Below are positions 13,427-49,805 of a DNA stretch of 64,000 nucleotides, piece by piece (the stretch's first letter is position 1; each line of letters opens with the position of its first letter). The DNA comes from Takakia lepidozioides (taxonomy: Eukaryota > Plantae > Bryophyta), in contig CM060732.1 in the NCBI GenBank assembly GCA_030704615.1, positions 60,574,001-60,638,000 on the forward strand, given 5' to 3'. A program made the translations under genes and the position numbers. The notes beneath the pieces are model-generated. The model made no database searches. It was given only the letters and a program-made list of their open reading frames with translations, and had not been told where the DNA came from.

Positions 13427-15335
13427 TTTTCTTTTCTTTTTTTTGGCACAAGTGAATGCAAGTTTACATTCTCACTGCTAAGAAGATTACAAGGCAGCCC
13501 CTAGCCAGGAGATAAAGGGGCGCCCAACAGGGGCGTGGAGAACACACTAATGAACAAATTGACCCATTCTAGGTCTCCGATAGGACCACATAACATCTCT
13601 ACCAGCCCTGTAAAATAGCAGATGTTGTGACCCCCAAAGCTTGTCAATGAGAGAGGATGTCTTGTTCAGCCATCGGAAAGTCATCTGCTGTTTTAATAGC
13701 CTTTTTCCATGCCATCTTGGCATAGTCAAGGAGGGCTTCCCAGACGAGCTTCTGCAACTTCTCCTGCTGCCACCTGATCCTATTGAAGACAAGATCATTT
13801 CTCTCAATCCACACAAGCCAGAGGATTATGCCTCTCAAAAGTGACCAGATTGGACCAAAAAACTGGAGGCTTTTGGGTAGCTTCTTTTCAAAGAGGCACT
13901 GCCGTAGGTTGAAACACTTCCAAGCCCTTCCTTGAAGAGCATTTGACCTCAACCTGTGAAGGATAGTAATACCCCATTTCCAGGCCCTAACAGCTCGAGG
14001 GCACTCAAAGAATTTGTGCGCAATTGTTTCAGGCACATTGCAATCACACACTATGCACCTTTTATCAATGGAGGTGTCTGCCATCGCTCTCCACTCATTA
14101 ACAGCTATCGCATGGTGCCATAGTGACCAGATGAACGCGGCCTCTTTTTGAGTTCAGGGTCGTTGCCATACCGACTTCCATCTCAACGACGGAGGTATGT
14201 TCCCAACATCCCTCCACTTGTGCTAAATGCTTTTAGAGAGCGCATGTCTGGGACTAATCCACCCTCTGCCCTTCTTTGGAGTGTACGAGAGCAAGTCATC
14301 TTCTCTTTTCCATAGCCATCTACCAGGATCGAAAACTAGGACTCTCAATTTCCCTGCGAACAGTAGGAACTGGGTTTTTGTCGGTCCTTTCTTAACCAAC
14401 ACCACCCTAACCTTTTCGATCGTTCCACCTTGCTCGAGCCAGTGTGTCATCTCTTCTCTCTGAACTTTCCTAAGAATCATGGTTTGGGGACTCACGGAGA
14501 AAACCACAATTGAAGTAGGGGGATGCATGTCTCTAGGCACCCGCCCACAAGCTGGCACAAAGTCAGCATTGGTCTGGAACACAAACTTGGGCGCGAGCTG
14601 ATCTGATTCATTACCGTAATAGCCAACCCACTCGCCTTCTTCAATGTTTGGTTCTCCCTCGTGCATAACTTGTTTCCATTCAGCAGGAATGTTGCCGAGT
14701 ATCCTTTCCCATATCTGGAATTCCACATCCTCTAGTTTGTATTTTGCCTTAGCTAGTTGCCATGATAGAAGGGCATTCTCTTGGGCATCCCATAAATCAC
14801 CTATTTGGCGCAAACCTTTTCTATGCACTTCTACTCGCTCAATGGAGACCCCGAACCTTCCCCCTCGAAACTTCTCTCCCACACCACAGGTTCATCTTCT
14901 TAATCTCCCAAAATTCCTCGAGTGGGGCAGCTAGCGTTACATGCTTGGACATTGCCTTCCATGCCTTAGCAATCTTACTCCAAATGCGGGAACCAAGGAA
15001 TGAGGAATGGCCTTTAACAAAAGCCCACTGAAGATCAGGCAGCCATCTTCTATGCTTTGATGGCTTGCACTTGCTCAACCTGTACCGTAGCAGGGTTTTC
15101 AAGTTTGAATCCCCGGGTTCTAGCGCACTGAGAATCCACTTACATAAGAGTGCTTGCATAGCTTTGTCCGGGTCAATAAGTGACAGCCCTCCCAGTTTCT
15201 TTTTGACACAACAATCAGTCCACTTAATCCGTGATCTGGTTAGATTCTCACTGCAACCTCAAAGATAATTTCTCAGCATTACACGAATCTTGCGTATTGC
15301 CTTGGTAGATCCGCCCCAAACCGACACAAAATACC
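13427..15335 (-). mobile_element. L1/Tx1-like LINE, 3' part (ORF2 C-terminus with zf-RVT, 3' UTR, poly(A)); degraded
   Basis: Minus-strand translation gives WYFVSVWGGS..RIKWTDCCVKKKLGGLSLIDP..AMQALLCKW, CIVCDCNVPETIAHKFFECPRAVRAWKW and WLVWIERNDLVF. A T-rich tract at 13427-13444 is the poly(A) tail. Stops and frameshifts are present. Confidence 0.85.
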
Positions 15336-17189
15336 TGTCAAGTTATTTTACCACTAGTGTGAAACTAGCTAAGAAATAGCTAGCTTTTACATATTGACAT
15401 TTGGGATTGGCCCAAGTGTCAATCCAGGGGTCAAGGCAGATTTAGGCCCTGGAGTGGTTATCTTCACGGCAAGCGCGGGAGGCTCATCTTTCTCGAGTTG
15501 AGCCTCACCGCGCCTAGCTATGGCGCCGTAGTGTGGATTCCCCATGGCGTAGGGTGCACTTGGCTTGACTTGTATTTGAGTGATGAGGTTATATATGCAT
15601 GAGTTTATGCTTCAGCTTTGTGAGCTCGCATGAGCTTGTGCTTGTATTCTTCTTCTTTATCACTCGAGAAAGATCAGCTCGCATCTGTGAGTGCCAGATA
15701 CGAGTTAGTTGTAGCATTTGTGGTTTTTGCTTGAGAATGAGAGAAACCAAGTTGTTATGCAAGGAGCACCGTGGAGCTCTTGGTTGTTAGAAGTGGAGGC
15801 GATGTGGGTTACGAGGTGGTAGACCTTGGCATTCGATCTTCAGCTTCAGAGATGAAAGCACCATGCTGCAGGTAATTCCAGAGCACCTTGATGGTTTCAG
15901 ATTGTGTACATGCATGAGCAAGCACGATTGGGAAGAGGACCAGTCAAGAGCAGGTTATAGTGGCTTTGGTGGCAAAGCTGAGAACTGGACTTGGGAATGC
16001 GAGCTTTCATTGTGTGAAGGATTGCAAAACCAAGCGAAAGGGCTGATTTGGCTTGGGGCAAATCAGTGTACTTTGTGGAGTATGGTGAGATTGGGTTTCA
16101 ATCTCGAGCTTCAGCATTGAGAGGGCTCTTGTCATGGCAAGAGCAGGGCTGGAACAGGAGCTAAGAGGTGCGGCAAGGCCATGGAATGTGCACCTAGGGT
16201 TTCAGAGCTTGGAAGAAGAGCTCTTGCACCACAAGAGAAGTGTCTTGTGGCTGGAAATGTAAGCCTTAGGGTTTCAGGAGCTTGACAAAGGCTGTGGAGT
16301 GCTTAGTCTTGTCTTAGAGAGCATCAAGGAGCCAATGAGCCAAGATAGGGGGCTGATATCTCGTGTGTGAAGAGGTTGCATGTGTGGAGCATGTATTCAG
16401 CTCATTGAAGCTTCCATCTTCAAGCTTGGAGGGCAAGCAAGAAAGAGGGAAGGGCTGACTTCCCTTATGTGAGGGCAATGCATGTGTGGAGCATGCTATC
16501 AGCCTGGTGAAGGCTTGCACTTTCAGGTGTGGGAGTGCAAGAAAGGAAGGAAGGGGCTGGTTTCCCTGTAGGGCATGTGGAGCATGCTTTCAGCCTGCTG
16601 AAGCTTGTATTTTCAGGTTTGTGGGTGCAAGAAATGAAGCAAAGGAGCTAATTCTCTTATGGTGAGAGTGGGGCATGTGTGGAGCATGCCTTCAGCCTAT
16701 TGAGGCTCTTGTTTTCAAGCTTTAGAGAGCTAGAACGGAAGGTCTAGGGCTGGTTTCCACTTGGAGTGAAAGAAAAGCACTTGTAGGGCCTATGTGAGTT
16801 GGGGTTTCAACTTCAAGCTTGAAGGGAGCGCAACTCTTGAAGTAGCAGGTGTAGGGGGCTGGAATAGGCTCTAAGACAGATGCTATGGCCAAGGAGAGTG
16901 CTTGAATGAGTGCTCACAAGGGCTGGGAACCAGCAGGACTTGGTTGTTTGCCATTGAGTTTAGTGGCGTGTTTGGGGAGGCTAAGTGAGAAAGAAGGCTT
17001 GGTTTGTGGCAACCACCTCATGGCTTAGGGCTACTATGGTGGTGTGTGGGAGCTGAAAGAGCAAGAATACCTTGCTGATTTCCTCACAGCCGCCATAGCT
17101 CGGTGGAAAGAAGCCTAGAGTCCAAGAGACACAAACCCTAGCTTGGCGTGGCTAAACCCCTTGGAGAAATGGCTAAACTGCCAGAGCGG

Positions 17190-18695
17190 GTGTGCCGGGC
17201 TGCGCCGGTGGCCTTCAGGGCTGTGACGGGCTGTGAGGGGCTGTGCCGGTGGCCTTTTGGGGCTGTGATGGGCTGTGAGGGGCTGTCACGAGCTGCGCCA
17301 GTGGCCTTCGGGGTTGTGACGGGCTGTGACGGGTTGCGCCCCTGGCCTTTGGGGCTGTGAAGGGCTGTGAGGGGTTGTGATAGGCTGTGCCCGTGGCCTT
17401 TGGGGCTGTGAGGGGCTGTGAGGGGCTGTGACAGGCCGTGCCTGAGGCCTTTGGGGCTGTGAGGGGCTGTGAGGGGCTGTGATAGGCTGTGCCCGTGGCC
17501 TTTGGGGCTGTGATGGGCTGTGAGGGGCCGTGCCTGAGGCCTCTGGGGCTGTGACGGGTTGTGAGGGGCTGTGACAAGCCGTGCCTGAGGCCTTTGGGGC
17601 TGTGACGGGCTGTGAGGGGCTGTGTCAGGCCGTGCCTGAGGCCTTTGGGGCTGTGAGGGGCTGTGCCGGGCTGCGCCGGTGGCCTTCAGGGGGGCTGTGA
17701 CGGGCTGTGAGGGCCTGTGACGGGCTACGCCGGTGGCCTTGGGGGCTGTGATGGGCTGTGAGGGGCTGTGCCGGTGGCCTTTTGGGGCTGTGATAGGCTG
17801 TGCCCGTGGCTTTTAGGGCTGTGATGGGTTGTGAGGGGCTGTGACAGGCCGTGCCTGAGGCCTTTGGGGCTGTGAGGGGCTGTGACAGGCCGTGCCTGAG
17901 GCCTTTGGGGCTGTGACGGGCTATGAGGGGCTGTGTCAGGCCGTGCCTGAGGCCTTTGGGGCTGTGAGGGGCTGTGGCGAGCTGTGACGGGCTGTGACAG
18001 GTTGTGCCCAGTGGCCTGTGGGGCTGTGACGGGCTGTGCGGGGCTGTGATAGGTTGTGCCCAGTGGCCTGTGGGGTTGTGACGGGCTGTGAGGGGCTGTG
18101 ACAGGCTGTGCCTGTGGCCTTTGGGGCTGTGAGGGGCTGTGACAGGCCGTGCCTGAGGCCTTTGGGGCTGTGACATGCTGTGAGGGGCTGTGTCAGGCCG
18201 TGCCTGAGGCCTTTGGGGCTGTGACATGCTGTGAGGGGCTGTGTCAGGCCGTGCCTGAGGCCTTTGGGGCTGTGAGGGGCTGTGGCGAGCTGTGACGGGC
18301 TGTGACAGGCGGTGCCCAGTGGCCTGTGGGGCTGTGACGGGCTGTGCGGGGCTGTGACAGGCTGTGCCCAGTGGCCTGTGGAGCTGTGAGGGGCTGTGAC
18401 AGGCCGTGCCTGAGGCCTTTGGGGCTGTGACGGGCTGTGAGGGGATGTGACAGGCCATGCCTGAGGCCTTTAGGGCTGTGACGGGCTGTGACGGGCTATG
18501 TCAGGCCGTGCCTGAGGCCTTTGGGGCTGTGAGGGGCTGTGGCGAGCTGTGACGGGCTGTGAGGGGCTGTGACAGGCTGTGCCCAGTGGCCTGTGGGGCT
18601 GTGACGGGCTGTGACAGGCTATGGCGAGCTGTGACGGGCTATGAGGGGCTGTGACAGGCTGTGCCCAGTGGCCTGTGGGACTGTGACGGCTGTGA
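17190..18695. repeat. Element-internal tandem array, ~51-bp unit built from ~10-bp GGGCTGTGA(C/G) sub-motifs
   Basis: Direct reading. The homologous array in copy 2 is at 44465-46452. Confidence 0.92.
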
Positions 18696-19429
18696 CCAGT
18701 GAGCTGTGTGGGCCTGTGCTGGTCTGTGGTGGCCCGTGTTGACCTGTGGAAGGCCTGTGCTCACTCGTGGAGGCACTGGTGGACTGCCTAAGGACTGACA
18801 TGTGGTCTTGAAGGCCGAATTTTGAAGCTCGTGGAGGGCGGTTTGAGGAGTATCTTCATGATATTCCCATGGTCATGCAAGTGAGGGAAGAGAGGAGAGG
18901 AAGAGTGTTGGGATGAGGGCATGCTGGGGTTAGGCATTGTTTTAGCTTCTCTTCCTCGTAGTTTCCACCCTCTCATTAGGCCAAGACCTTTCCGTAGGTG
19001 GAGGCAAGAGTCAGTCCGGGTTTGGGCTGGGGTGTCATGGCAGGAGCAACACCGTGGAGTTGTTTTTGGTGTGGGGGAGTTGTTGTTCTGATTTCTTGTG
19101 TTTGGATCCCCGCCATACCTGCATGCTTGACTGTACGCCATGCTAGTTTTGTGTGGGCGCTTGTTTTTATAGGTGATTGGTCTGGATTTGATCACCGGCC
19201 AGTCCTAGAGCATGTTGTCGATGGTGAGGCTGGGGTGATGACCAGACAGACCATCATTGTTTCTCCTGTGGTGAGGTTGGAGGTGATGACCAGCCATAGG
19301 AGTGCTTGCAGTGGATGCACGTACAGGTGTAGGCTATGTTAGGAACTTAGTATTCCAAACCATAAGCCGCAACAGGTTCTCTACCCGGTTACCTTGTGGA
19401 GAGGAGGTTAGGGACATGTTCATGACCGG

Positions 19430-22400
19430 TTGAGTGTCAACACGGAGGTGCCACTAGTTGCTGGGGACAGTGCCGGTTTGAGCACTAGCGATACTAGTGG
19501 GTACACGAGACGAGGTGTGCGGTTTAGGCCACCTTCACCTCCTGTGTCTTCTACGGAAGGTCTGATTCGGATTGTGAATCAGAGCTTGCAAGAGTTCCAA
19601 CGGAAGCCGACCGAGAGCTTGAGGGAGGCTTTCACTCGCATGAGGCGCTTGATAAATGTAACCCAAGGGGTTACGGAAGCTCAGGCAGTCCAATTCTGGT
19701 ATGGGATATTGGACAAGGAGCTGAGTAGAAGGGTGCAGGATGCAACTCTCCTACAAGCGGCCCAACCTACCTTAGCAAATGTGTTTTTGCTGGCAGAGCG
19801 GATAGAGCTCAACATGGTGGAGGAACGAGTGGTCATGGTGGGATTTGCTAAGGAGACACCACGGGGTAGTGGTACTCCTAACCAACCACTACCTCAACGT
19901 GCTCAAGGCAACAAGGGGGCTCAGGTGAAGCTCAGGGAAGGGCAGAGAGGACCTCAGATGCAGGGGTCTCTCCCTTCATTTGCTGGCCAACAACGGGCGG
20001 ATGTGGTGTGCTGGACATGTGGAGGACCCCATGTCAAGAAGGATTGCCCAGAGGGAGGCAAAGGGCCGGCACATGCACAGCCTGCACAGTTGCAGTGTGG
20101 GCATTGTGGCAAGCACGGGCATGGAGAGGCCCAGTGTTATGGTTTGCATCCTGAGTTGCGCCCAGGCCAGTTCCAAGGGAACAATGGTGGCCGGGGGCGA
20201 GGTGGAGCAGCCCAGAAAGGACGAGGTGGCCAGCCACGAGGTGCAGGCCAAGGGCAAGCTCAACATGGCCAAGGACGCGGAGGTCAGGGGGTTGACCAAG
20301 GCATGGCCAACCGGCTTTAGCAGCTAGAGCAGAGGCTCGCTGCCATGGCTACAGCTCAGGTGGTACCGGCTCTAAGGCCGGATGGTCCACCTCCTGCTCC
20401 TGAGGGAGGAGATATGGGAGGCATGGGATTCATGTGTGGAGCAACACTACCACTAGTGCAGGTGGAGTCTGCTGCAGCCGTGACTCGAGGAGCAGCACAA
20501 GTTCCTGAGCCACGAGGTGCAGAGGTGGCGTTGGATCCACAACGTGGGGAGGCAAGCCATCAGGCTAGGCTTCCTCAGTCATTCACATTGGCGGAGACAG
20601 TGTCGACGCCATCCATGGCACCTAGTTCTCGCCCGACTGTTACCAAGGCAGAGGTTACTATGCCATTGAGGAGAGCTACACGGGTAGCACCACTACCTAG
20701 TGTTGCCAAGGCTACGGCAGCTAGTGTGCTGCTAGGAGCGGCCACATCTGTGTGCCAGGCTCCATTGTTCTCGGCTACCATGATTGCGACGCCGAGGGTA
20801 AGACCAGCTGAGGTGTTCAGGCTGGCAGCTACACTTTGTGAGAGTGGGGAGGTTACTTCATCTTCTGCGGAGATAGTGGGAGGTGTAGTGCCGGAGGGAT
20901 CCTCGGATTTGAGAGTCAAGACTGCCACGGCGGTGCCATGGCAAGCTGCAGCTGCTAGGTTGATGGAGCTGCCAGTTAGGCTAGCCATTGAGCGCGCCAT
21001 GGTGACACCTGGAGTTGTCATGTTAGACAACCAGGATGGCATTTTCTGTTTGAGTGGACCGGCAGGCAAGAGGTACCGGCCACTGCGGGTCTTGTTGGAC
21101 TCGGGAGCTCAGCCATTGATGCTGGGCAAAGCTGCTATTGCAGGCTTGGGCCTCACAGAGGCGGATATGGAGCCTTGTCATTTCCAGATACAGACGTCTC
21201 TGGGAGGATCGGAGCAGGCTCGGGGCATGACACGGCGTGAGTTGGCTATCAGACTATGGCCGGATCACCCTACAGATGGCTCAGTGATGCGAGCCAAGGC
21301 CATTGTGACAGACGCGGTCTCATACGATGTCCTGGTTGGTGGGGCAGTGTTGTACCCCATGGGCTTCACCCTGGATTTTTGGGAGGAGTCAGCTTCCTAT
21401 AGGCCTGCATGGCAGTCAGGGGAGGGCCGGCGTGTGCAGCTCCCTGTGACATTCATTGGAGGAGTTGCGGTTGCCCAGCGAGGCAAGATGCCGATACTAG
21501 CAGCATTCACAGCGGCAGTGAGTTGGCCTAGAGAGTTGCTTGAGGGCAACGCTCATTCAGAGGATGTGCCACCTCCGGGAGAGCAGGATGACATGTATGG
21601 TATGGCGGAGTTGCCTACCATGGTTACTCAGACTCCATTGTGGGGCACGAGCAAGGATTTGCAGCGGGATGCTGATCGACGGGTGCAACAAGCCTGGGTG
21701 GAGGCTTTTGTACCGTCAGGAGAGGAGGAGGGTGCGGGGATTGCACCAGGACCACCTCAGTTGTCGCCATTGGACACCACACCTATTGTGTGTCAGTATC
21801 CGGATGAAGGCATTTGTTTTCTGGACTTGTTTGGCGGGATCAACACCGGATTGGCTGCTGTGTTACAGGCAGATGTACGAGTTCAGCATTACCTGTATGT
21901 GGAGAGGGATGAGACTGCACGACGCATTTCACTTCGCCATATTGCTCAGTTGGTGCAGCGGTACCTTGACTTGTTGTCGGTGTCTGCAATTCGTGGATAT
22001 CAGCAGGCCTTGCCAGCAGACATTTCGTTGTTGGGGGTGCAGGATTTAGAGCGGGTTGGCTCCATTGATCTGGTAGTGGCAGGTTGGCCCTGCCAAGGGC
22101 ATTCATCAGCCGGGCATGGCAATGGATTGCGAGACTCGAGGTCGGGTCTGTTTTGGGAGATGGTGCGGGTTTTGCGCCACTTGCAGCTTCATCAAGCTGT
22201 ATCTCCAGCATACATCTTAGAGAATGTGCCACTGATGGGCGATTCTCGGGCCAAGGTGATGGCCAGTGTGCATCAAGTCCGGTCGTGGCTTGGGTCAGCA
22301 GTGTTGCTAGATGCAGCTACAGTGGGGTCATGGGCTCATCGTCCACGGCTATGGTGGACTAACTTGTGCCACCTGCACTGCTCAAGCGTGCATTTGATGG

Positions 22401-23056
22401 GGTGCAGCGGCCAGCACACCTCATAGTGGATAGCATTTTGGACACAAGGAGGCAGTCTCAACGTGTGAGATGCGATGACCATTCGCCTTTGGCAGTGGTC
22501 AACAGGATGGGTCAACCACGAGCAGCATTACCTACACTGTTCAGCTTTCCAGGATCTCATGCTTTCCGGGATAGTGGACCAGGCCTCCTGTGGGATGCTC
22601 AGTTGCAGCAGTTAGTGGAGCCTAATGCCGACGAGCGAGAGCGGGCTATGGGGTTTTCCACTGGGACCACGGCGGTGCCTTCTCTTTCTGGCATCACGTC
22701 GTCAGGTGTTGGGGCAAGCAATGGATCTCAATTGCTTGACCTGGATTATCAGCTTGGCTATGGTTGAGCAACGTAGAGTGCGGAGTGCACTTCCCTTTAC
22801 GGTCTCTCTGCCTACCGAGACGGTACAGGCAGTGAGTGGGGGCGAGCCGGTGAGGACCACAGGGCGTATTCATCCATGGCACACGTGGGAGGTGCTCGAG
22901 GTTCAGAGGGAGTTGGCAGCCAAGGCGGCTGTGATAGATGAGGTTGGGGATTTTTCTCGGGTTGAGGAGGTCCTCAATGATGAAATGATGGGGTCGGATG
23001 AGGTCTTGTCATTGACTGAGCAGGCAGGGAGTACTGCTCAAGAGGTTGCAGCATAG
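19430..23056 (+). pseudogene. Copy 1 ORF1: Gag (internally deleted) - 2 Zn knuckles - aspartic protease - C5 cytosine methyltransferase; disrupted
   Basis: CWTCGGPHVKKDC, CGHCGKHGHGEAQC, VLLDSGAQ, FLDLFGG, AGWPCQGHS, YILENV, AHRPRLWWTN, ERERAMGF, RRQVLGQAMD. Stop at 20318, frameshifts at ~22365 and ~22690. Ends at TAG 23054-23056. Confidence 0.9.
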
Positions 23057-26000
23057 CAACCACGGGACGTGTCCTCTATCTCTAAGCCCACTGGACTTAA
23101 GGTTGCAGTTACGGAGGACAATTGGGAGCCTGACATTGGACCCATTGTCACCGGAGGAGAGAGACGACGTATACGGCGGTTCCTGAGGGCTTACAGGAAT
23201 TGCTTTGCCTTCAGTTTGAAGGACTTGGGAGCACTGAAGGGTCAAGAGATCCGTATTGAGTTGGCCACTGACACGCCAATCTTTCGGAGACCCTATAGAT
23301 ACAGTGACATGGAGAGGTCTTTGATTTAGATGAGGACTCAAGATCTCTGGGAGGCAGGTTTGGTGGAGCTCTCTGGTGGAGAGTATGCTTCAGCCATAGT
23401 GATGCCAGCCAAGAAGGATGTCTATGGCAATTGGACGGAGAGACGTATGTGCGGTGATTACCGGCCTGTAAATCGTCAGACCAAGTCCGATAAGTATGCC
23501 ATGCCAACACCAGAGGAGATCTTTGATGCCATCGGGCATGCTAAGGCCTTTAGCACTTTGGATTTACGATCCGAATATCACCAGTTGTCAATCAAGGAGG
23601 CGGACAAGCAGAAGACGGCATTCTGGGGGATCAATGAGCACGGCAAGGATTGCCTATATCAGTGGCGGTTCTTACCATTTGGGCTTAAGAATGCTCTTGC
23701 AGAGTTTCAGAGAGTCATGGATAGGATTCTAGCAGGGGTGGACTTTGCTCGGTGCTACATAGATGACATCATCATCTTTAGTGTTACGATGGAGGAGCAT
23801 GAGAGACACCTTCAGGTGGTATTGGAGCGCTTGAGAGCGCACGGATTGAAGTTGCATCCGGGGAAGTGCAAGTTTTTCCACAACCAGATTGAGTATCTGG
23901 GTCACATGATATATCCTGGAGGATTGGGGTACAGCAGACTAAGGTAGAGGCCATTGCACAAATTCCACGCCCCACGGATGTGAGCCGAGTTTGAGCTTTC
24001 ATGGGGTTGGCAAACTATTATAGACAGTTTGTCAAGGGATTTAGTACCATTGCAAAGGCTCTAACCAAGCTGACCAAGGTGGACCAGGAGTGGCAGTGGA
24101 AAGATGAGCAGGAACGAGCTTTTCAAGAGCTCAAGGCGAGGTTGACCTCGGCGCCTATCCTGAGACGACCTATCAAGGGGCGTCCCTTTCAGCCGCATAC
24201 GGATTGGAGCATGCTGGGGCTTGGAGCGGTGTTCACACAGGTGGATGATGAGGGAAGAAAGTTTGTAGTGGCTTATGCTAGCCACTCGAACAACGCTGCA
24301 GAGGCTAAGTACAGCTCATATGAGGGAGAGTGCTTAGCTGCAGTGTGGGCCGTGACACACTTCAGGTGCTATCTATACGGCAATCTTTTCACTCTTGTCA
24401 CGGATCACCAGCCACTCAAGTGGTTGATGGAGTCAGATAAGCTTACGGGGAAGCTTGCACGGTGGGCACTCATACTCCAGGAGTATGACTTTTAGATTGT
24501 GCATCAACCGGGTTTGGTCAATCGGGATGCGGATGGATTGAGTCGCAATCCATGCATGAGCCAGCAGGATGACACTGGAGCTCGGTGGCATGGTGAGACA
24601 GACGAGGAGATGGTGCCGGGATGGCACGAATCTGTATTTTTGTGTATCTTGGCATCGGGAGGTCAGGTTGGACCTACAACAGGGATGACTGTAGACGGAG
24701 TGTCTGAGGACTCTGAGGCTAGTGATGAGCCAGGTAGTGCCAGAGATATACATGAGGATTCGGCTGTGTTGGACTACCTCCGCACGGGAGACACGGCAGC
24801 CACTGTGACTGTCAGGGAGAGGGATCGGATCCTGCAACGAGCCAAGAGGTTCAAGTGGGAGGGGATACACCTACTTTGAGTGTGGGAGGATGGTCAGGTG
24901 AGGATTGTGCCTCACCCCACACAGCGTGCACGGTTAGTGCGGCATGCCCATGAGGAGTTGGGGCATTTTGGAGTGCGACGCACTCACAGTTTACTGCAAG
25001 GGCAGTATTGGTGGCGTGGTATGCATACAGAGGTGCAACAGTTCGTGGCTAGTGCATGGTGTGTGATAGGGTGGCGTGCTTCATTCAACACCCCTACACC
25101 ACAGTTGCATCCTTTACCAATCATGGGATTGGGCTACAGGTGGAGTCTTGACTTCGCAGGACCGTTGCCACTGACTGTGCGCCACCACAGATATGTGTTG
25201 GTGATGGTGGAGCACTTTTCTAAGTGGATTGAGTTGGTTCCATTGCCTGACAAGGCTAGTGAGGGGGCTGCGTATGCATTCTTGGATCGTGTGCTTAGCC
25301 GATTTGGTGCTCCAGCTGAGGTACTCACGGACCAAGGGAGAGAGTTCTTGGGGGAGTTTCAGGCTTTGTGTGATAAAGCCTTGATAGACCACCGCACCAC
25401 TTCTCGGGATCATCCTGAGGCCGATGGCTTAGCAGAGAGAGTTGTTCAGACGGTGAAGAGGGGTTTGCGCAAGTATGGCTTGCAGAAAGGACACCTAGGA
25501 GATTGGGATCTTCAGGTTCCTTGCTTAGCCATGGGCTACAGGTTCAGCAAACAAGCATCACTTGCCTCCTTCTCACCATATTTCCTTCTCTTTGGCCGAG
25601 AGCCGGATTTGCCTGCAGCCATTCGTAGGGACACTGCTCAAGTCCTTAACCTTGACGATCCGGACGTGTGGGTACGTGCATGTGATCAGCGTGCAGAGTT
25701 GTTCAAGAAAGTCATGCCCATGGCTTTTGAGAACCTTGCCATTGCACAGCACCGTGATACGTTGAGGTATGCCACTATACGTGGTGGAGGATATCATCCT
25801 GGGGTTCGGAGGTTTAGCCTTGGTGACTATGTTTATTTGCAGCAGACTACTCCTACGACTCTGGATGTTACTGCAGGGCGTGTTATTCTGAGGGTTCGAG
25901 AGGTGTTGCCCTCAGGGGTCCTGATCTTGGAGGGTCGGGATGGCATGACTTGGAAGGACCATGTGCGTAATTGTGCGTCATGTCACCTTCCCAATGTCGA

Positions 26001-26189
26001 TGGCAGAGTTGACCCAAACTGGCAGTGGTACCTGCAGGTTTGAGGTGCATGCTCTGTGGGTCTGCCAAAGGGGCAGCCACCATGCTGGTGTGTGATCGAT
26101 GCTCAAGGGGTTGGCATATGGGATGCTTGACACCACCTCTTGAGAAGGTTCCTGACGGACATTGGTTGTGTCCACACTGCTTGGGATAG
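23057..26189 (+). pseudogene. Copy 1 pol: RT - RNase H - DDE integrase - PHD finger; disrupted
   Basis: RMCGDYRPVN, LPFGLKNA, YIDD, TDWS, YEGECLA, HEELGHFG, SLDFAG..TDQG..AER, and a PHD motif CMLC..CDRC..WHMGC..WLCPHC after a frameshift at ~26020. Stops at 23327, 23992, 24493 and 24877. Confidence 0.92.
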
Positions 26190-26607
26190 TGGCAATGGAC
26201 ATGACTGGAGGCAGCTAACAAGACATGGGAGGCCAAGCTCATAGGAGTCAATACATGAGATTCCAAGCTCAAGTTCACAGGTTGCAAGATGGCGACTAAC
26301 GATGGGGCAACTCTTGCACCCGGCCTCTTGATCTATCGAGTTTGAGTGTAGTAGGGATAGTGGTGGAGGACTTAGTGAGGCTATGGTCACTATCACATCT
26401 TGTGGCTACCTGGACTTAGAGGGACCTAAGCACCAGCTAGGGGGGCGATTGTGTGGACTAGTGACTGCCATAGTGGGCAGCATAGTGGCAGCCTAGTGAC
26501 TGACTTGTAGCCTAGTGGTTGGACTAGTGGCTGGACTAGTGGTATACTAGTGTGTGGTGTGCACATGTGTTGTGTGGTTTTGGACAGCGATATGTATGCG
26601 CACAACA

Positions 26608-26872
26608 TACCACAGAGTAGAGGAGAGGACTGAATTAACAATCACCGCTCTCCCCGCCAAAAAGAGATGGGTGTTGCACCAGTAAGTCAATTGCTTCTTT
26701 ATCTTGGAAATCAAGAATTCATCGACGTCCTTTACATCAAGGTTGAGCCCAAAAGAAGTTTCTAACATCTTGGAGAGCTCCTCATCCCTCGCCCACTTCC
26801 ACCCTAACTCTTCAGTCCAAGCCGGGCAAGGTAGGGTCTTGGAGCACCAGTAAGCACCACTTTTATCCCAGT
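26608..26872 (-). mobile_element. Upstream continuation of the same LINE ORF2, truncated by a CACTA end
   Basis: Minus translation FLISKIKKQLTYWCNTHLFLAGRAVIVNSVLSSTLW joins YFVSVW at 15335 across the retroelement. Confidence 0.85.
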
Positions 26873-27400
26873 CACTACAGCAAATGGGGGCGGGTTTACG
26901 ACGCCAGCCGCGCCCCCACGTCTCGCGCGGTGCTGAACCCGTGACGCCGAGCCTGCGGCACTTTTTTGCGACGCCCCGGCGTTGCAATCCCCCGCTGCGA
27001 CACATTGCGATGCCCAGCCGTCGCAAAGTGGCATGAAGGGGGGAAAATGGCTCTCACTGCGACGGATTTTTTTTCTTGCGATGCCTCGGCGTCGCAAAAG
27101 CGTCACTGAGGGCGCCCCAGCACCTCTGCGACACTAGGGCATCGCAACAACATCACCACAATGAGAGTTTGTTTGTTGTTTTTTTTTTTGGCTTCAACTT
27201 CACAAAAGCATCTCTTGGGGCGTCCCGCGCTGGGACGGCCAATGCTGTGACGTCAGGGGGTCGCAACGGCGTCGCCACAGGGGGTCGCAATGGTGTTGTA
27301 GTCAGCTTAGGTCATCACAAGGACGTCGTTTGGGGCGTCTGGCGGTGGGGGGGTGCAACAATGGCGACGACGTTGGGGTTGGGGCTGGGGCTGGGCACTA
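26873..27400 (+). mobile_element. CACTA (En/Spm) terminus with GCGACG-type subterminal repeats; partner end not seen
   Basis: CACTACAGCAAAT at the LINE breakpoint, followed by many GCGACG/CGTCGC motifs. The same terminus occurs at 31943. Confidence 0.7.
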
Positions 27401-31127: not shown

Positions 31128-31942
31128 CCCTAGGCATAGGAGGTGGTGCAGGTGGGGCTTGAACCTCAGGCCTTGGAGCTGGTGCAACATGAGTAATGGC
31201 CATGGCAGCAAGACGTTGTTCTAGCTGGGCAAGCCCTATCCACTGCCTTGGTCATGACCTTGACCCTGACCTTGTGCTCCTTGGTTTTGGTTATGACCTC
31301 CACCACGACCTCTGCCTCCTCTACCTCTCTGGACTACATTGCCTCGTCCTCGGCCACCATTGTTCCTTTGGAACTGGCCTGGCCGTAGCTCAAGATGCAA
31401 GTCATAACAATGGGCCTCATCATGCCTATACTTGCCACAAATGCCCACATTGTAATTGTGTAGGCTGTGCCTATGTCGGCCCTTTGCCTCTCTCCGGGCA
31501 ATCCTTCTTAATATGAGGTCCTCCACAATCCCAACAATTCACACCCGACTATTGTTGGCCTGAGGATGAAGGAAGAGGCCTTTGCATCTAAGATCCTCTC
31601 TGTCCTCCCCTGCGCTTCGCTTGAGCCCCCTTGTTGCCCTAAGCACGTTGGGATAGTGCTTATTGTTGACTAGGAGCCCCACTTTGTTGTGTCTCCTTAC
31701 CTAACCCCACCATGACCACTCGCTCCTCCACCATATTGAGCTCTATCCGTTCTACCAGCAAAAACACATTTGCTAACGTGGGTTGGTCCACTTGTAGAAG
31801 AGTTGCATCTCGCACCCTTCTCCTCAGCTCCTTGTCCAATATCCCATACCAGAATTGGACTGCCTAAGCTTCCTAACCCCTTGGGTTACATTTATCAAGC
31901 GCCTCATGCGAGTGTAAGCCTCCCTCAAACTCTTAGTAGGCC
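31128..31942 (-). pseudogene. Diverged gag remnant of a relative of the DNMT retroelement (third, older copy)
   Basis: SLREAYTRMRRLINVTQGV, CGKYRHDEAHCYDLHLELRPGQFQRNNGGRGRG and MAITHVAPAPRPE match the Gag of copies 1 and 2. Cut by the CACTA end at 31943. Confidence 0.85.
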
Positions 31943-33479: not shown

Positions 33480-35556
33480 AGACATGACACTGCCACTGTG
33501 ACAACATGAAAGTATCCAAAAACACGTAACAGAGATGAGGAGAAACTGTGGATGAATACTTTTCTAACCCAAGTCAATGCTGGGACACCGAGGCAAAAAG
33601 GTAAATGCTTGATACATGAGAGTAGCAGACGCAATTCAGTATAGGAACTAGTGTAATAAGCTGAGTTGGGTGTTTCCTAGAACAAATCTAGCTGTCATTA
33701 TCAGCTGCAAGAGACAAAAAGGTGAATGCCTGTTGGACTACAGAGAGAAGCAGATGCAATATAGAATTGGAACTACTATTATAAGTAGGGCTTGGGTGTT
33801 TGCTGGACGGACTTCACGCCGTTAGTGTCAACTGCTAGCAGCAAGGCTGACGATGTATTTATGATTTGTATACAGGCAGGGATATATAGCTGAAGGACTA
33901 GGGATAGAGGTCCAGATTTATCCAAGAGGGCTAGATTTCAAACACAAGATTACTTCTGATTCCCTGTGGATCAATAGCTACAAGTGGATAGATGGTCAAC
34001 TGGAAACGGCAACGGCAACAGCACAATTGATAGAACAAGGCACTGCTGATGAAGGTACCTTCTTCAACACATTTCACCCTGTTTTTCCTGCTATCAGAGT
34101 CGTCCCTGAATTTTGATGTTGAACTCTGCAAGGTAGCTGAGGAGAAGTTCTGGAAGGAATACGTTTAAGACCCCAATGGTGGAACAATCGAGGCAAAAAG
34201 GTGAATGTCTGTTGGAAGTAGACGCAAATCAACATAGGAACTAGTGTGACAAGTAGGGTTGGGGTGTTTGCTGGAACAATTCTAGGTTGCCATTGTCAGC
34301 TACTAACCGCAAAGCAAGGATGTATGCATGATTTTGTGCAGAGGCATGGATAGCTGAAGGGGCAGGGATAGAGTGTGGGTCCAGATTGCTGGATTTCAAG
34401 CTCCAAATTACCTATGATTCCATGTGGAAGGATAGCTACAAGAAACCTGCATGGGTAGATGGTCAACTGGAAGCCGCAGCAGCAACGGCACAATTGATAA
34501 AATCAAGCATTGGTAATCAAGGCACCTTCTTCAACACAATTCACCTTGTTTTTCCCTCTAATCAGAAATCGGTTCTAAATTTTCATGTTCAATTCTGCAA
34601 GTTAGCTGATTGAGTGAACCTTTGATAGTTTGGAGTGACTTTGACAAAGTACTACCAATGTGACAACAGGAAAGTGTCCAGAAACAGGTAACAGAGATGA
34701 GGAGAAGTTGTGGAATGAATACTTCCTGACTCCAGTCAATGGTGGGACAATCGAGGCAAAAAAGTGAATGTCTGATGGATTACAGAGAGTAGCATATGCT
34801 ATTAAGCATATGAACTAGTGTGATAAGTAGGGTTGGGGTGTTTGCTTGAACAATTCTAGGCTGTCATTGTCAGCTGCTAGCAGCAAGGCAAGGATGTATC
34901 CATGATTTGTGCAGAGGTATGGATAGCTGAAGGGGCAGGGATAGAGTGTGGGTCCAGATTCATCCAAGAGGGATGGATTTCAAGCTCCAGATTACCTATG
35001 ATTCGATATAAAATCAGGCACTGGTAATCAAGGCACCTTCTTCAACACAATTCACCTTGTTTTTCCCTCTAATCAGAAATCGGTTCTAAATTTTCATGTT
35101 CAATTTTGCAAGTTAGCTGGTTGAGTGAACCTTTGAGAGTTTGGAGTGACTTTGACATGGTACTACCAATGTGACAACAGGAAAGTGTCCAGAAACAGGT
35201 AACAGAGATGAGAAGAAGTTGTGGAATGAATACTTCCTGACTCCAGTCAATGGTGGGACAATCGAGGCAAAAAAGTGAATGCCTGATGGATTACAGAGAG
35301 TAGCATATGCTATTAAGCATATGAACTAGTGTGGTAAGTAGGGTTGGGGTGTTTGCTTGAACAATTCTAGGCTATCATTGTCAGCTGCTAGCAGTAAGGC
35401 AAGGATGTATCCATGATTTGTGCAAAGGTATGGATAGCTGAAGGGGCAGGGATAGAGTGTGGGTCCAGATTCATCCAAGAATGTTGGATTTCAAGCTCCA
35501 GATTACCTATGATTCCTTGTGGAAGGATAGCTACAAGAAACCTGCGTAGATGGTCA
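33480..35556. repeat. Degenerate tandem repeat, unit ~510-590 bp (about 3.5-4 units)
   Basis: ACTACCAATGTGACAACAGGAAAGTGTCCAG recurs at 34651 and 35162 (511 bp apart). GTAACAGAGATGAG and GTCAGCTGCTAGCAG recur. Related sequence lies at 48570-48740 and 49806-50530. Confidence 0.85.
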
Positions 35557-36256
35557 ATTTCTTGTTGTGGTAGTGCTTAGCAACATCGTGCTTGAAGAAT
35601 GAAGTATATTTTAGGAATGTATATAGGCAGACTGGTTCAAACACCATGTCAGTGTCTGATGTATTAACATCCAATATCGTTCGAAGGTGCAATGTCCTCT
35701 GAGGTTGTGTTGTATGACATGTTTGATTGTAGTTGTGCCTTTCATATGTTGTTGCTTCTGCCAGTCTATGCAACAGGGTTGGTGGTAGAATTTTTCTTTG
35801 CCACTCTTTGCAACTGCCAACAGGGTTGGGGGTCAATTCGTTGGTCATTGAAAGATTAATGCATGCTCTCTTTCCCTGCATAGGGGTTGTGTCTTGGTAT
35901 AGATGGCCTTTCTTCTTTGCCAATTGTTGTGCTTATGAGAGCTCCACAAAGTTAAATTTCATATTAATTTAATTTAATTTAATATCTAAATTAGTCATTT
36001 AAAATTAAATAACATTTAATAAATTGTAAAATCTACATGATCAACAGGTGTCAGTCATACCTGCTCCAACGAAACCACGTGCCATCTGTAGTGTTGTAGT
36101 GATATAGTCATACCCATAGTCGTGTAGTCATAAAGATATGACTACTCCACTGCACCATCAGGTGATGATTACATATGTCAATGCCCAAGGATCCCACATG
36201 TCACGCAGAGGCCTCTCCATGTAGGCGCAATGTTGTAGTGATGTAGTCGTAACCTC

Positions 36257-36963
36257 TGTCGTGCGCATACATATCGCTACACAACTACATCGCTGTCCAA
36301 AACCACACAACACATGTGCACACCACACACTAGTATACTACTAGTCCACACTAGTCCAGCCACTAGTCCAACCACTAGGCTACAACTAGTCAGTCACTAG
36401 GCTGCCATTATGCTGCCTACTATGGCAGTCACTAGTCCACACAATGATAAAGAGGAAGAATACAAGCACAAGCTCATGCGAGCTCACAAAGCTGAAGCAT
36501 AAACTTATGCATATATAACCTCATCACTCAAATACAAGTCAAGCCAAGTGCACCCCACGCCATGGGGAATCCACACTACGGCGCCATAGCTAGGCGCGGT
36601 GAGGCTCAACTCGAGAAAGATGAGCCTCATGCGCTTGCCGTGAAGATAACCACTCCAGGGCCTAAATCTGCCTTGACCCCTGGATTGACACTTGGGCCAA
36701 TCCCAAATGTCAATATGTAAAAGCTAGCTATTTCCTAGCTAGTTTCACACTAGTGGTAAAATAACTTGACAGCTGTCGTGCGCATACATATCGCTACACA
36801 ACTACATCGCTGTCCAAAACCACACAACACATGTACACACCACACACTAGTATACTACTAGTCCACCACTAGTCCAGCCACTAGTCCAACCACTAGGCTA
36901 CAACTAGTCAGTCACTAGGCTGCCATTATGCTACCCACTATGGCAGTCACTAGTCCACACAAT
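36257..36963 (-). repeat. 3' repeat block of copy 2: B1 (36962-36774), GC, A2 (36771-36445), B2 (36444-36257)
   Basis: A2 matches A1 (47984-48310) with one difference seen in 327 bp. B1 and B2 (~189 bp) differ at about 4 positions. Confidence 0.93.
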
Positions 36964-43300: not shown

Positions 43301-44319
43301 TTGCCACAATGCCCACACTGCAACTGTGCAGGCTGTGCATGTGCCGACCCTTTGCCTCCCTCTGGGCAATCCTTCTTGACATGGGGTCCTCCACATGTCC
43401 AGCACACCACATCCGCCCGTTGTTGGCCAGCAAATGAAGGGAGAGACCCCTGCATTTGAGGTCCTCTCTGCCCTTCCCTGAGCTTCACCTGAGCCCCCTT
43501 GTTGCCTTGAGCACGTTGAGGTAGTTGTTGGCTAGGAGCACCACTACCCCGTGGTGTCTCCTTAGCAAATCCCACCATGACCACTCATTCCTCCACCATG
43601 TTGAGCTCTATCCGCTCTGCCAGCAAAAACACATTTGCTAAGGTGGGTTGGGCCGCTTGTAGGAGAGTTGCATCCCGCACCCTTCTCCTCAGCTCCTTGT
43701 CCAATATCCCATACCAGAATTGGACTGCCTGAGCTTCCGTAACCCCTTGGGTTACATTTATCAAGCGCCTCATGCGAGTGAAAGCCTCCCTCAAGCTCTC
43801 GGTCGGCTTCCGTTGGAACTCTTGCAAGCTCCGCAACTTCTCTGTCCTCACCCCTTGGTAGTTCCCTCTCAACTCTTCGAAGAACTCCACAACAGGGTTG
43901 AAGGCAGGCACGGGTGCTAGTGCTGGTGCGGTAGTGGCTTGGGTGGACGTCGTAGCTACTGTACCACCAGTCCCACTGCTGCTTGCTGAAGCTGCCGGTG
44001 CAGCGGCAGGTGTAGCCACTGCCCTCGTGGCTCTAGTGCCCCTAGTGATGGAGACATAGTCGGGTGACCAGTACATCCTCCACTCCTCGATCTCAACCTC
44101 ATGCCCCCGCCTGAACTCATGGTAATCATCCATAGGCGGCCCCTCAAGGTGCTGAAACAGCCCTTTCCATGCCATGAACGGCGTAAATAGTTGTGGATTG
44201 CGCATTTGCTGCAAATCACACCAACTATCAAACTCTTGGATAAAATCATCCAACTCAATGGTGCCCACCGCCCCAGAGTACCTTCGTGGCCCCTTGGTAG
44301 CTCCATACATCTCCTCCAT
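40356..44319 (-). pseudogene. Copy 2 ORF1: Gag - 2 Zn knuckles - RGG-rich - aspartic protease - C5 DNA methyltransferase; one nonsense and two frameshift lesions
   Basis: Gag from MEEMYG..ELDDFIQEFDSW (the true start may lie upstream). TGA at 43585 (CGA in copy 1), frameshifts at ~41713 and ~40508. Ends at TAG 40358-40356. Confidence 0.9.
40657..41602 (-). CDS. C5 cytosine DNA methyltransferase domain (DNMT3/Dcm-like), uninterrupted in copy 2
   Basis: Motif I LLDLFGGISTG, II YVERD, IV DLVVAGWPCQGHS, VI YILENV, VIII RAHRPRLWWTN, IX-X EREWAMGFTTGTT..SRRQVLGQAMD, in canonical order within the 400-aa ORF 40478-41680. Confidence 0.93.
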
Positions 44320-44464
44320 TGTGTCCCACAATAATGGCAAAGAAACAACTTGCACCGCCGGTATGAGCCCTCCTGATTTACAATCCGAATCAGAACCTTC
44401 CGTGGAAGACACAGGAGGTGAAGGTGGCCTAAACCGCACACCTCGTCTCGTGTACCCACTAGTA

Positions 44465-46452
44465 GGCCACTGGGCACAGCCTGTCACAGCCCCTCACAGC
44501 TCGTCACAGCCTCAAAGGCCTCAGGCACAGCCTGTCACAGCCCCTCACAGCCGTCACAGCCCCAAAGGCCTCAGGCGCGGCCTGTCACAGCCCCTCACAA
44601 CCCGTCATAGCCCCAAAGGCCATGGGCACGGCCTGTCACAGCCCCTCACAGCCCGTCACAGTCTCAAAGGCCTCAGGCACGGCCTGTCACAGCCCATCAC
44701 AGCCCCAAAGGCCTCAGGCATGGCCTGTCACAGCCCGTCACAGCCCGTCACAGCCCCAAAGGCCTCAGGCGCGGCCTGACACAGCCCCTCACAGCCCGTC
44801 ACAGCCCCAAAGGCCATGGGCACGGCCTGTCACAGCCCCTCACAGCCCATCACAGCCTCAAAGGCCTTAGGCACGGCCTGTCACAGCCCCTCACAGCCCG
44901 TCACAGCCCCAAAGGCCATGGGCACGGCCTGTCACAGCCCCTCACAGCCCGTCACAGCCTCAAAGGCCTCAGGCACGGCCTGTCACAGCCCCTCACAGCC
45001 CGTCACAGCCCCAAAGGCCATGGGCACGGCTGTCACAGCCCCTCACAGCCCCTCACAGCCTCAAAGGCCTCAGGCACGGCCTGTCACAGCCCATCACAAC
45101 CCCAAAGGCCTCAGGCACGGCCTATCACAGCCCCTCACAGCCCGTCACAGCCCCAAAGGCCTCAGGCGCGGCCTGTCACAGCCCCTCACAGCCCGTCACA
45201 GCCCCAAAGGCCATGCGCACGGCCTGTCACAGCCCCTCACAGCCCGTCACAGCCTCAAAGGCCTCAGGCACGGCCTGTCACAGCCCCTCACAGCCCCTCA
45301 CAGCCCCAAAGGCCATGGGCACGGCCTGTCACAGCCCCTCACAGCCCGTCACAGCCTCAAAGGCCTCAGGCAGGGCCTGTCACAGCCCCTCACAGCCCCT
45401 CATAGCCCCAAAGGCCTCAGGCAGGGCCTGTCACAGCCCCTCACAGCCCGTCACAGCCCCAAAGGCCTCAGGCACGGCCTGTCACAGCCCCTCACAGCCC
45501 GTCACAGCCCCAAAGGCCTCAGGCACGGCCTGTCACAGCCCCTCTCAGCCCGTCACAGCCCCAAAGGCCTCGGGCACGGCCTGTCACAGCCCCTCTCAGC
45601 CCGTCACAGCCGCAAAGGCCTCGGGCACGGCCTGTCACAGCCCCTCACAGCCCGTCACAGCCGCAAAGGCCTCGGGCACGGCCTGTCACAGCCCCTCACA
45701 GCCCGTCACAGCCGCAAAGGCCTCAGGCACGGCCTGTCACAGCCCCTCACAGCCCATCACAGCCCCAAAGGCCATGGGCACAGCCTATCATAGCCTGTCA
45801 CAGCCCCACAGGCCTCAGGGCACAGCCTGTCACAGCCCCGCACAGCCCGTCACAGCCCCAAAGGCCACTGGGCACAGCCTGTCACAGCCTGACACAGCCC
45901 GTCACAGCCCCACAGGGCACAGGGCACAGCCTGTCACAGCCCATCACAGCCCATCACAGCCTCAAAGGCCTCAGGCACGGCCTGTCACAGCCCCTCACAG
46001 CCCATCACAGCCCCAAAGGCCATGGGCACAGCCTGTCATAGCCCGTCACAGCCCCACAGGCCTCAGGGCACAGCCTGTCACAGCCCCGCACAGCCCGTCA
46101 CAGCCCCAAAAGGCCACTGGGCACAGCCCGTCACAGCCCCAAAGGCCACTGGGCACAGCCTGTCACAGCCTGACACAGCCCGTCACAGCCCCTCACAGCC
46201 CATCACAGCCCCAAAGGCCATGGGCACAGCCTGTCACAGCCCGTCACAGCCCCACAGGCCTCAGGGCACAGCCTGTCACAGCCCCGCACAGCCCGTCACA
46301 GCCCCAAAGGCCACTGGGCACAGCCTGTCATAGCCTGACACAGCCCGTCACAGCCCCACAGGGCACAGGGCACAGCCGGTCACAGCTTGCCACAGCCTGT
46401 CACAGCCCGTCACAGCCCGTCACAGCTTGCCACAGCCTGTCACAGCCCCACA
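44465..46452. repeat. Element-internal tandem array, 51-bp unit GGCCTGTCACAGCCCCTCACAGCCCGTCACAGCCCCAAAGGCCTCAGGCAC
   Basis: Direct reading. About 2.0 kb here versus ~1.5 kb in copy 1. Confidence 0.93.
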
Positions 46453-47983
46453 CATGGCCGCTCTGGCAGTTTAGCCATTTCTCCAAGGGGTTTAGCCACG
46501 CCAAGCTAGGGTTTGTGTCTCTTGGACTCTAGGCTTCTTTCCACCGAGCTATGGTGGCTGTGAGGAAATCAGCAAGGTATCCTTGCTCTTTCGGCTCCCA
46601 CACACCACCATAGTAGCCCTAAGCCATGAGGTGGTTGCCACAAACCAAGCCTTCTTTCTCACTTAGCCTACCCAAACACGCCACTAAACTCAATGGCAAA
46701 CAACCAAGCCCTGCTGGTTCCCAGCCCTTGTGAGCACTCATTCAAGCACTCTCCTTGGCCATAGCATCTGTCTTAGAGCCTCTTCCAGCCCCCTACACCT
46801 GCTGCTTCAAGAGTTGCGCTCCCTTCAAGCTTGAAGTTGAAACCCCAACTCACATAGGCCCTACAAGTGCTTTTCTTTCACTCCAAGTGGAAACCAGCCC
46901 TAGACCTTCCGTTCTAGCTCTCTAAAGCTTGAAAACAAGAGCCTCAATGGGCTGAAGGCATGCTCCACACATGCCCCACTCTCACCATAAAAGAATCAGC
47001 TCCTTTGCTTCATTTCTTGCACCACAAACCTGAAAATACAAGCTTCAGCATGCTGAAAGCATGCTCCACATGCCCTACAGGGAAACCAGCCCCTTCCTTC
47101 CTTTCTTGCACTCCCACACCTGAAAGTGCAAGCCTTCACCAGGCTGATAGCATGCTCCACACATGCATTGCCCTCACATAAGGGAAGTCAGCCCTTCCCT
47201 CTTCCTTGCTTGTCCTCCAAGCTTGAAGATGGAAGCTTCAATGAGCTGAATACATGCTCCACACATGCAACCTCTTCACACAAGAGATATCAGCCCCCTA
47301 TCTTGGCTCCTTGGCTCCTTGATGCTCTCTAAGACAAGACTAAGAACTCCATAGCCTTTGCCAAGCTCCTGAAACCCTAAGGCTTACATTTCCAGCCACA
47401 AGACACTTCTCTTGTGGTGCAAGAGCTCTTCTTCCAAGCTCTGTAACCCTAGGTGCACATTCCATGGCCTTGCCGCACCTCTTAGCTCCTGTTCCAGCCC
47501 TGCTCTCGCCATGACAAGAGCCCTCTCAATGCTGAAGCTCGAGATTGAAACCCAATCTCACCATACTCCACAAAGTGCACTGATTTGCCCCAAGCCAAAT
47601 CAGCCCTTTCGCTTGGTCTTGCAATCCTTCACACAATGACAGCTCGCATTCCCAAGTCCAGTTCTCAGCTTTGCCACCAAAGCCACTATAACCTGCTCTT
47701 GACTGGTCCTCTTCCCAATCGTGCTTGCTCATGCATGTACACAATCTGAAACCATCAAGGTGCTCTGGAATTACCTACAGTATGGTGCTTTCATCTCTGA
47801 AGCTGAAGATCGAATGCCAAGGTTTACCACCTCGTAACCCACATCGCCTCCGCTTCTAACAACCAAGAGCTCCACGGTGCTCCTTGCATAACAACTTGGT
47901 TTCTCTCATTCTCAAGCAAAAACCACAAGTGCTACAACTAACTCGTATCTAGCACTCATAGATACGAGCTCATCTTTCTCGAG

Positions 47984-48310: not shown

Positions 48311-48519
48311 CCTCAGTCATAACTTTCAGTCGTGTAGTCATATTTGTTATGACTACATCACCAAACCCTGCATCACCCTCAGTGACGACCATGACTTCGC
48401 ACTTATCACTCCGTAGTCATGGTAGAACTGACTTCGTGTTTGTCACTGCAGAGTGAGGTAGTCATAACAACACTTATCACTGCTATTCATAGTCATAAAA
48501 ACGTTAATCTGTACTAGTG
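48311..48519. mobile_element. CACTA terminus (CACTAGTACAGATT on the minus strand); its subterminal GTAGTCAT repeats continue at ~36040-36256
   Basis: AATCTGTACTAGTG ends at 48519. Dense AGTCAT/ATGACT motifs flank copy 2 on both sides. Confidence 0.65.
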
Positions 48520-49800: not shown

Positions 49801-49805
49801 GGGGT

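Follow-up and report, generated by a model that had tools for sequence, protein, structure and literature searches.

A Gypsy-DNMT3 retrotransposon insertion with no terminal repeat in Takakia lepidozioides, and a likely route of insertion through a palindrome inside the LTR

How does a retrotransposon insertion that has no pair of long terminal repeats (LTRs) come to lie between perfect target-site duplications (TSDs)? The question is raised by a stretch of 64,000 nucleotides of the moss Takakia lepidozioides (GenBank assembly GCA_030704615.1, contig CM060732.1, positions 60,574,001 to 60,638,000 of the forward strand), referred to here as the window, in which self-comparison revealed two inverted copies of one 11-12 kb element of the Gypsy-DNMT3 type. 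Copy 1 (15336-26607, plus strand) has the layout TACC/A-internal-B/TACC, and copy 2 (48310-36257, minus strand) the layout GAGG/A1-internal-B1-GC-A2-B2/GAGG. Comparison of these copies with their relatives points to a likely mode of insertion for the family, namely through cleavage of a small palindrome within its LTR.

Copy 1 begins TGTCAAG, the start of a 327-nt A repeat that is 98.5% identical to both A repeats of copy 2, and closes with a single B whose last letters are ...GCACAACA. The window holds just three A and three B repeats and none further, which leaves copy 1 with one of each; inspection of the letters themselves shows that it has no terminal direct repeat, and its A and B ends are unrelated. 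The first-pass annotation had described this arrangement, together with the TACC/TACC flanks and a cleanly split open reading frame (ORF) of a long interspersed nuclear element (LINE), and our sequence comparison bears out both parts. Once the four shared bases are removed, the minus-strand LINE frame is open across the insertion point with no stop and no loss, and among overlaps of 0-7 bases only that of four restores it: overlaps of 0, 1 and 3 give a stop, those of 2, 5 and 6 a frameshift, and that of 7 stays in frame with one residue lost. The chance of a four-base TSD match is p ~0.004. The host LINE is itself decayed, with a stop 24 codons beyond the junction and a zf-RVT domain at 13647-14153; no LINE homologue across the junction was found among related metagenome loci, and the window contains no second copy of the target of copy 2 that could serve as its empty site. 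The insertion of copy 1, a Gypsy-DNMT3 element between two TSD copies, is genuine.

The coding region carries Pfam domains for gag, C5 DNA methyltransferase (PF00145), reverse transcriptase (RT), RNase H, integrase (rve) and a PHD finger, and follows the Gypsy order gag-(protease)-RT-RNase H-integrase. The protease had no Pfam match and is seen only as a DSG motif, which we take to be a protease-like signature. A scan of 32 ORFs within and beside the two copies gave no tyrosine recombinase; there was likewise no chromodomain match in the domain search, and no Pfam match above cut-off for the long antisense ORFs of the tandem array in the 5′ leader. The best matches of the copy 2 methylase domain in the PDB are DNMT3A (E 4e-10). 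The best named protein relatives lie in liverworts (Calypogeia at 75%, Riccia, Marchantia), then in Klebsormidium and Closterium, a distribution pointing to a bryophyte-type host; viral contigs gave no match to the element, and bacterial and archaeal genomes only one spurious match of 22 residues. In an RT tree of 23 rows picked by hand, 16 fall into one clade apart from conventional Gypsy (support 100/99, midpoint root), including the window's element and three K. nitens proteins that may correspond to the published K. nitens elements. The integrase has the spacing D-34-E, as against the usual 35, in copy 1 and in 58 of 64 matched homologues; the six with a spacing of 35 are low-ranked matches that group outside the clade, and D-34-E may be a marker for it. 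The element is a Gypsy of a liverwort/charophyte clade.

Related loci were drawn from a metagenome scan, as the best 80 of 188, and represent three families. A readable 3′ end was present in 59 of the 80, of which 47 are distinct; the other 21, which stop short of B, are broken up or show no match to B, were left out of the 3′-end count. L079 duplicates L078, and L031 was counted as single-B although its flank starts GCTG, possibly a broken B/A junction. The 47 distinct 3′ ends comprise 27 with a single B, 17 with B-A-B, two in which B-A and the primer-binding site (PBS) are followed by an inverted A, and one B-A that ends with its contig. Single-B copies, which the annotation of copy 1 had proposed as an overlooked form, therefore do exist and are frequent in the clade. 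Both ends are available for eight distinct single-B copies, six with an exact 4-bp TSD and two matching at three of four bases (chance 3e-13), and four complete B-A-B copies have an exact TSD, one of them with a damaged A start; the TSD sequences are varied.

The ends that reverse transcription would define are not those at which these elements insert. Directly after A, the bases are the reverse complement of a site inside A, over 17 nt in copy 2 and 13 nt in copy 1; such PBS/A complements, of 12 and 13 nt, also occur in two related families that have different PBS sequences, and in each of these four cases the match was equalled by 0 of 1000 shuffles; in a set of 18 rows, 14 have such a complement. 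A purine tract stands directly before B. A PBS after A and a purine tract before B imply that B plus A is the LTR made by reverse transcription, and the standard process would accordingly yield BA-internal-BA DNA. The two related families have a TATA-like box upstream of their primer site; none was seen in the A of the window. Where B meets A, the junction reads CA-NN-TG with a 2-nt spacer in 21 of 21 rows (20 distinct), allowing for C>T/G>A decay, and this motif is conserved while the remainder of A and B differs between families. Insertions begin at the TG and stop at the CA of this site, without the NN: not one of 15 distinct 5′ ends starts with B, and not one of the 47 3′ ends stops at the end of A. 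The earlier claim that insertions end at the B/A palindrome, with its central two bases lost, therefore holds for the window and for its relatives. In contigs of runs X1 and X2, loose ends of mixed sequence cluster at the end of B and the start of A, as expected for many flanks.

We consider it likely, from these comparisons, that the family cycles through self-priming, nicking of the palindrome and joining of the ends left unused. The RNA would start in A1 and end in A2, and would prime itself to give linear BA-internal-BA DNA. Integrase would ignore the RT-made ends and place staggered nicks in the palindrome of the left LTR, producing ordinary processed CA ends; it is tempting to speculate that the left site is preferred as the first to become double-stranded after second strand transfer, long before the right LTR. 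Host end-joining, before or after insertion, would then unite the unused A and B ends to give A-internal-B-A-B, presumably the sole form able to copy itself again. In family 2, the A2/B2 joint carries 0, 1, 2 or 4 extra bases matching the start of the PBS in eight of nine cases (the ninth is rearranged), variation which suggests that the joint is made anew each cycle by end-joining; it counts against this reading that only the 4-base extra is unambiguous, the shorter ones being ambiguous because B and the PBS both start with AT. Finally, single-strand annealing or slippage between B1 and B2, some 330 bp apart, could reduce the insertion to A-internal-B inside its old TSD, a form that would be a dead end because it has no downstream R (repeat) region.

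The same data do not support, in the form given, the earlier proposal that copy 2 arose by plain opening of a two-LTR circle at a B/A site. Such a circle has two equal B/A sites, so the mirror form A-B-A-internal-B should be as common as A-internal-B-A-B; yet neither B nor A-B stands before any of the 15 distinct 5′ ends, and equal opening of either site has p ~4e-4 on the eight of eight plain 5′ ends of complete single-B copies. The absence of the mirror form points to a preferred left palindrome and to a circle that is not opened at random.

For copy 1 itself, the first-pass annotation had offered integration of a one-LTR circle or B1/B2 recombination, which we judge to be the right two origins to set against each other. 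On balance we think that copy 1 probably went in as A-internal-B-A-B and that B1/B2 recombination afterwards removed an A and a B. It carries 108 decay-type differences (C>T/G>A), copy 2 only 53, in 6855 aligned bases, and is thus about twice as decayed and the older of the pair. At each of the three positions that separate B1 from B2 in copy 2, its B carries the presumed ancestral base, an observation that is neutral on whether this B is a B1/B2 mosaic. Copy 2's own repeats show four substitutions in ~515 bases, B1 and B2 being 98% identical. In run X6, contig depths of 75 at the purine tract/B joint, 142 over B, 133 over A and ~61 at the A/B joint suggest, as a rough reading, that in the window's own species a share of 0.77-0.97 (about 80-90%) of the young main subfamily would be B-A-B. 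A diverged internal variant was set aside here because it seems to carry a different B; with it pooled, the A ratio would drop to 1.3-1.4. The number of contigs was small enough for this purpose in X6 only; summed depths of runs X1, X2 and X5 over internal, A and B were too noisy for form ratios. Among relatives 2-10% old, 17 of 44 are B-A-B, and a curve of loss alone, fitted to this old set, predicts a B-A-B share of 0.72-0.88 at an age of 1-2%, close to the X6 figure. With five long branches dropped, the B-A-B counts run 6/13, 5/13 and 4/13 from young to old, and loss alone is not rejected (p=0.15).

A number of observations weigh against later loss. The X6 figure comes from one run of unknown library type, is compared across hosts and favours young copies, and its contig depths are, according to the tool, not copy number. 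The median terminal branch, a measure that tracks B1/B2 divergence (rho 0.69), is 0.068 for single-B and 0.061 for B-A-B forms (p=0.68, 44 relatives), and loss alone is rejected on all 44 (p=0.008), a result driven by long under-sampled branches. The family with the shorter B (115 nt) has a single-B share of 17/24 against 9/17 (p=0.33), eight loci present in two or three assemblies always have the same form, albeit in assemblies that may come from the same plants, and no solo A-B was seen in the flanks fetched around related loci. It is, then, a substantial if lesser possibility that copy 1 was born as A-internal-B, whether because integrase opened the lone B/A palindrome of a one-LTR circle or of a circular reverse-transcription intermediate, because B-to-B annealing healed a gap during insertion, or because integrase brought together the A end on the left and the B end on the right of linear complementary DNA (cDNA). 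Birth in this form would call for no additional end-joining step and would accord with the single B being the commonest form in relatives, found in seven of the 14 youngest copies with no age trend and intermingled with B-A-B in all three families on the tree; the inverted-A form, which can arise only at birth, exists at two distinct loci. It sits less easily with the predominance of B-A-B in the young subfamily of the window's own species, roughly as X6 gives it, and with the greater age of copy 1; moreover, even the youngest relative has an age of 2%, and assembly from short reads probably disfavours young B-A-B ends, as at L035, where the contig is broken within A2. The one-LTR-circle origin proposed earlier has evidence on both sides. 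The same division runs through the view that single-B forms confined to old copies, with B-A-B alleles at the same loci, would favour recombination: neither allelic discordance at the eight multi-assembly loci nor an age trend appeared, but copy 1 is the older copy and the young subfamily looks, on the rough X6 reading, mostly B-A-B. Later collapse and birth as single-B may both operate.

Two further explanations carry little weight. That the single B of copy 1 is an assembly collapse of B-A-B is hardly credible: B1 and B2 are near-identical when young, as the 98% of copy 2 illustrates, and none of the listed contigs spans the whole end, but the same assembly keeps B-A-B in copy 2, the B of copy 1 bears three deletions absent from both B repeats of copy 2, five of the single-B loci appear again in other assemblies, and the B1/B2 pairs of relatives differ by 4-14%, too much for simple collapse. 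Replication of a DIRS/Ngaro-like kind, in which B2 would be templated from RNA or a tyrosine recombinase would be supplied in trans, and copy 1 would be a deletion derivative, is very improbable. The A-coding-B-A-B layout is that of DIRS-type elements (PMC5890265; here and below, cited sources are represented by the parts of their text that were available); however, a DDE integrase is present with no tyrosine recombinase in the 32 ORFs, the true 4-bp TSDs vary in sequence and the central two bases are lost, and the A2/B2 joint, being variable, speaks against an RNA template.

Textbooks commonly treat one-LTR and two-LTR circles as dead ends and the ends of cDNA as the substrate of integrases. 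The layout of the element is known, and it is the proposed palindrome mechanism of insertion that is surprising; neither the palindrome route nor the single-B class was found in the literature searched, which omits most subscription journals and Repbase, and Gypsy-DNMT3 is mentioned in passing in the available part of a 2026 preprint. Copy 1 is either a decay product of the family's mechanism or the most direct footprint of circle integration. In the event of later collapse, copy 1 would be a commonplace product of decay, comparable to a solo LTR, and what is of interest would be the family. We would entertain, with some doubt, the broader idea that, in a widespread plant/algal Gypsy clade, the site used by integrase has shifted away from the cDNA ends into an LTR palindrome and one-LTR circles are routinely integrated; were this true, the clade's normal substrate would be a circle long held a dead end, and a large share of its insertions would have no LTRs from the outset, be dead on arrival and escape annotation based on LTR pairs. 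Insertions that all end at an internal palindrome make integration from a circle or an internal site testable with a short DNA substrate. In practical terms, and under either origin, more than half of the sampled 3′ ends of relatives come from copies without a terminal repeat, so pipelines that search for LTR pairs would likely miss or mis-bound the family, and the family thus likely missed in bryophyte-type genomes carries a DNA methyltransferase and a PHD finger.

Table 1. Positions of repeats, predicted signals, coding domains and host sequence for the two copies in the window
Feature	Position	Strand	Remarks
Left TSD of copy 1	15332-15335	.	TACC
A repeat of copy 1	15336-15662	+	327 nt, starts TGTCAAG; putative 3′ part of U3 (unique 3′) + R + U5 (unique 5′)
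PBS-complementary stretch inside A	15482-15498	+	Predicted transcript 5′ end and self-primer; arms 15482-15498 / 15662-15678, 94%
Predicted self-priming PBS	15663-15678	+	Directly after A; start not tRNA-type TGG
GC-rich tandem array, 5′ leader	17184-18760	+	Copy 2 counterpart 44464-46461
gag, protease-like DSG motif, C5 methyltransferase	19412-22426	+	Stops and frameshifts
Reverse transcriptase and RNase H	23330-24495	+	Fragmented
Integrase	24880-26043	+	Zinc finger and core; D, D-34-E triad
PHD finger	26048-26185	+	Frameshifted; coordinates approximate, from alignment to copy 2
Polypurine tract	26439-26448	+	Directly before B
Single B of copy 1	26449-26607	+	159 nt, ends CA; putative 5′ part of U3
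Right TSD of copy 1	26608-26611	.	TACC
Host LINE, part upstream of insertion	26608-26798	-	
Host LINE, part downstream of insertion	13647-15335	-	With zf-RVT
Copy 2 A1	47984-48310	-	TSD GAGG at 48311-48314
Copy 2 B1	36774-36962	-	After purine tract
B/A palindrome GACA-GC-TGTC	36768-36777	-	Predicted integrase attachment site
Central GC of palindrome	36772-36773	-	Missing from both insertion ends
Copy 2 A2	36445-36771	-	
Copy 2 B2	36257-36444	-	Joined to A2 end; TSD GAGG at 36253-36256

Several structural details accompany these features. Compared with B1 of copy 2, the B of copy 1 is missing 3, 11 and 16 nt at three places inside 160 bases of sequence made up of short direct repeats, and the remaining 6855 aligned bases of the two copies hold indels of 1-2 nt only; the three deletions could be inherited or the scar of error-prone repair. 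Some 800 bases before gag in copy 1 (18695-19492) are absent from copy 2, and the gag of copy 1 is short by ~540 bases present in copy 2 (43832-44372), with a few bases of microhomology at the ends. Loose ends of contigs at 36958 share the internal end and purine tract and then continue into differing B sequences, which are subfamilies with other B repeats in the same species. Elsewhere in the window, a diverged relative at 31166-31941 (minus strand) is 79-80% identical to the gag region of both copies, the adjoining 31943-32058 matches 26873-26986 at 76%, and degenerate tandem repeats of a few hundred bases flank copy 2 at 33481-35557 and 48568-50533.

Among the related loci, the inverted-A form (L003:1283-1798 and L011:3361-3878, L012 being the L011 locus) runs from B-A-PBS into A bases 180 to 1 in inverted order and ends exactly at the inverted A start (...TGACA/flank); both loci are relatively young, with left ends outside their contigs, and the form likely reflects a plus-strand fold-back or a mis-jump at the self-primer site, cut at a palindrome. 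A B-A-B copy with an intact TSD (AATG) has its first A bases replaced by five others (L026:2649-2665). At L010:8195-11172, an internally deleted 3-kb A-internal-B copy without the methylase, whose TSD matches at three of four bases, is possibly a non-autonomous derivative.

The closest published counterpart is KnitGypsy-Dnmt3 of Klebsormidium nitens (de Mendoza et al. 2018, PMC5890265), which shares the Gypsy domains, a Dnmt3-like methylase in Pol and the split, DIRS-like repeats drawn as A-coding-B-A-B. The layout of copy 2 was therefore already known; it is present in copy 2 and in 17 distinct relatives, and copy 1, which differs in having no A2 and B2, is its reduced form. The available text of that paper yielded no TSD, PHD finger, self-priming site, palindrome, mechanism or single-B form. 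The DIRS order (PAT, Ngaro; SymbioDIRS-Dnmt3, PMC5890265) has the same layout but employs a tyrosine recombinase, whereas here none was found and the TSDs are of integrase type. With Ty3/Gypsy (Metaviridae) the element shares domain order, TG...CA ends, a 4-bp TSD, a purine tract and predicted self-priming; it differs in a permuted LTR and insertion ends that are not RT-defined, in D-34-E rather than 35, in the PHD finger and methylase, and in the lack of a chromodomain match. In place of the same LTR directly repeated at both ends there are unrelated A and B ends in copy 1 and split repeats in copy 2. Tf1/Sushi elements are known to prime themselves and Tcn1 is predicted to do so (Neumann et al. 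2019, PMC6317226), and the predicted PBS described here is likewise complementary to a site inside the LTR. Two other candidates were set aside: Troyka (PMC12440569) has CG...CG termini and a 3-bp TSD, here TG...CA and 4 bp, and in tandem LTR retrotransposons that share an LTR (PMC11899658) the arrangement is an array LTR-internal-LTR-internal-LTR bounded by whole LTRs, whereas here the TSD abuts A and B and the copies are separate and inverted.

For the cutting step itself, foamy virus integrase cleaves the palindrome at the LTR-LTR junction as a side route (Delelis et al. 2005, PMC1180852), and cleavage of an internal palindrome has been described for HIV-1 (PMC1905944). The likeness to foamy virus lies in a DDE integrase that cuts an internal palindrome to give processed ends, as the sequences suggest here. 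In foamy virus that palindrome is formed by two RT-made ends; here it would lie in the middle of the LTR, be templated each cycle and seemingly serve the normal route. Transposon circles of the IS3/IS911 type offer a further parallel, in which a DDE enzyme cleaves abutted inverted ends a few bases apart, although these are DNA transposons whose junction is made by the transposase and not by reverse transcription.

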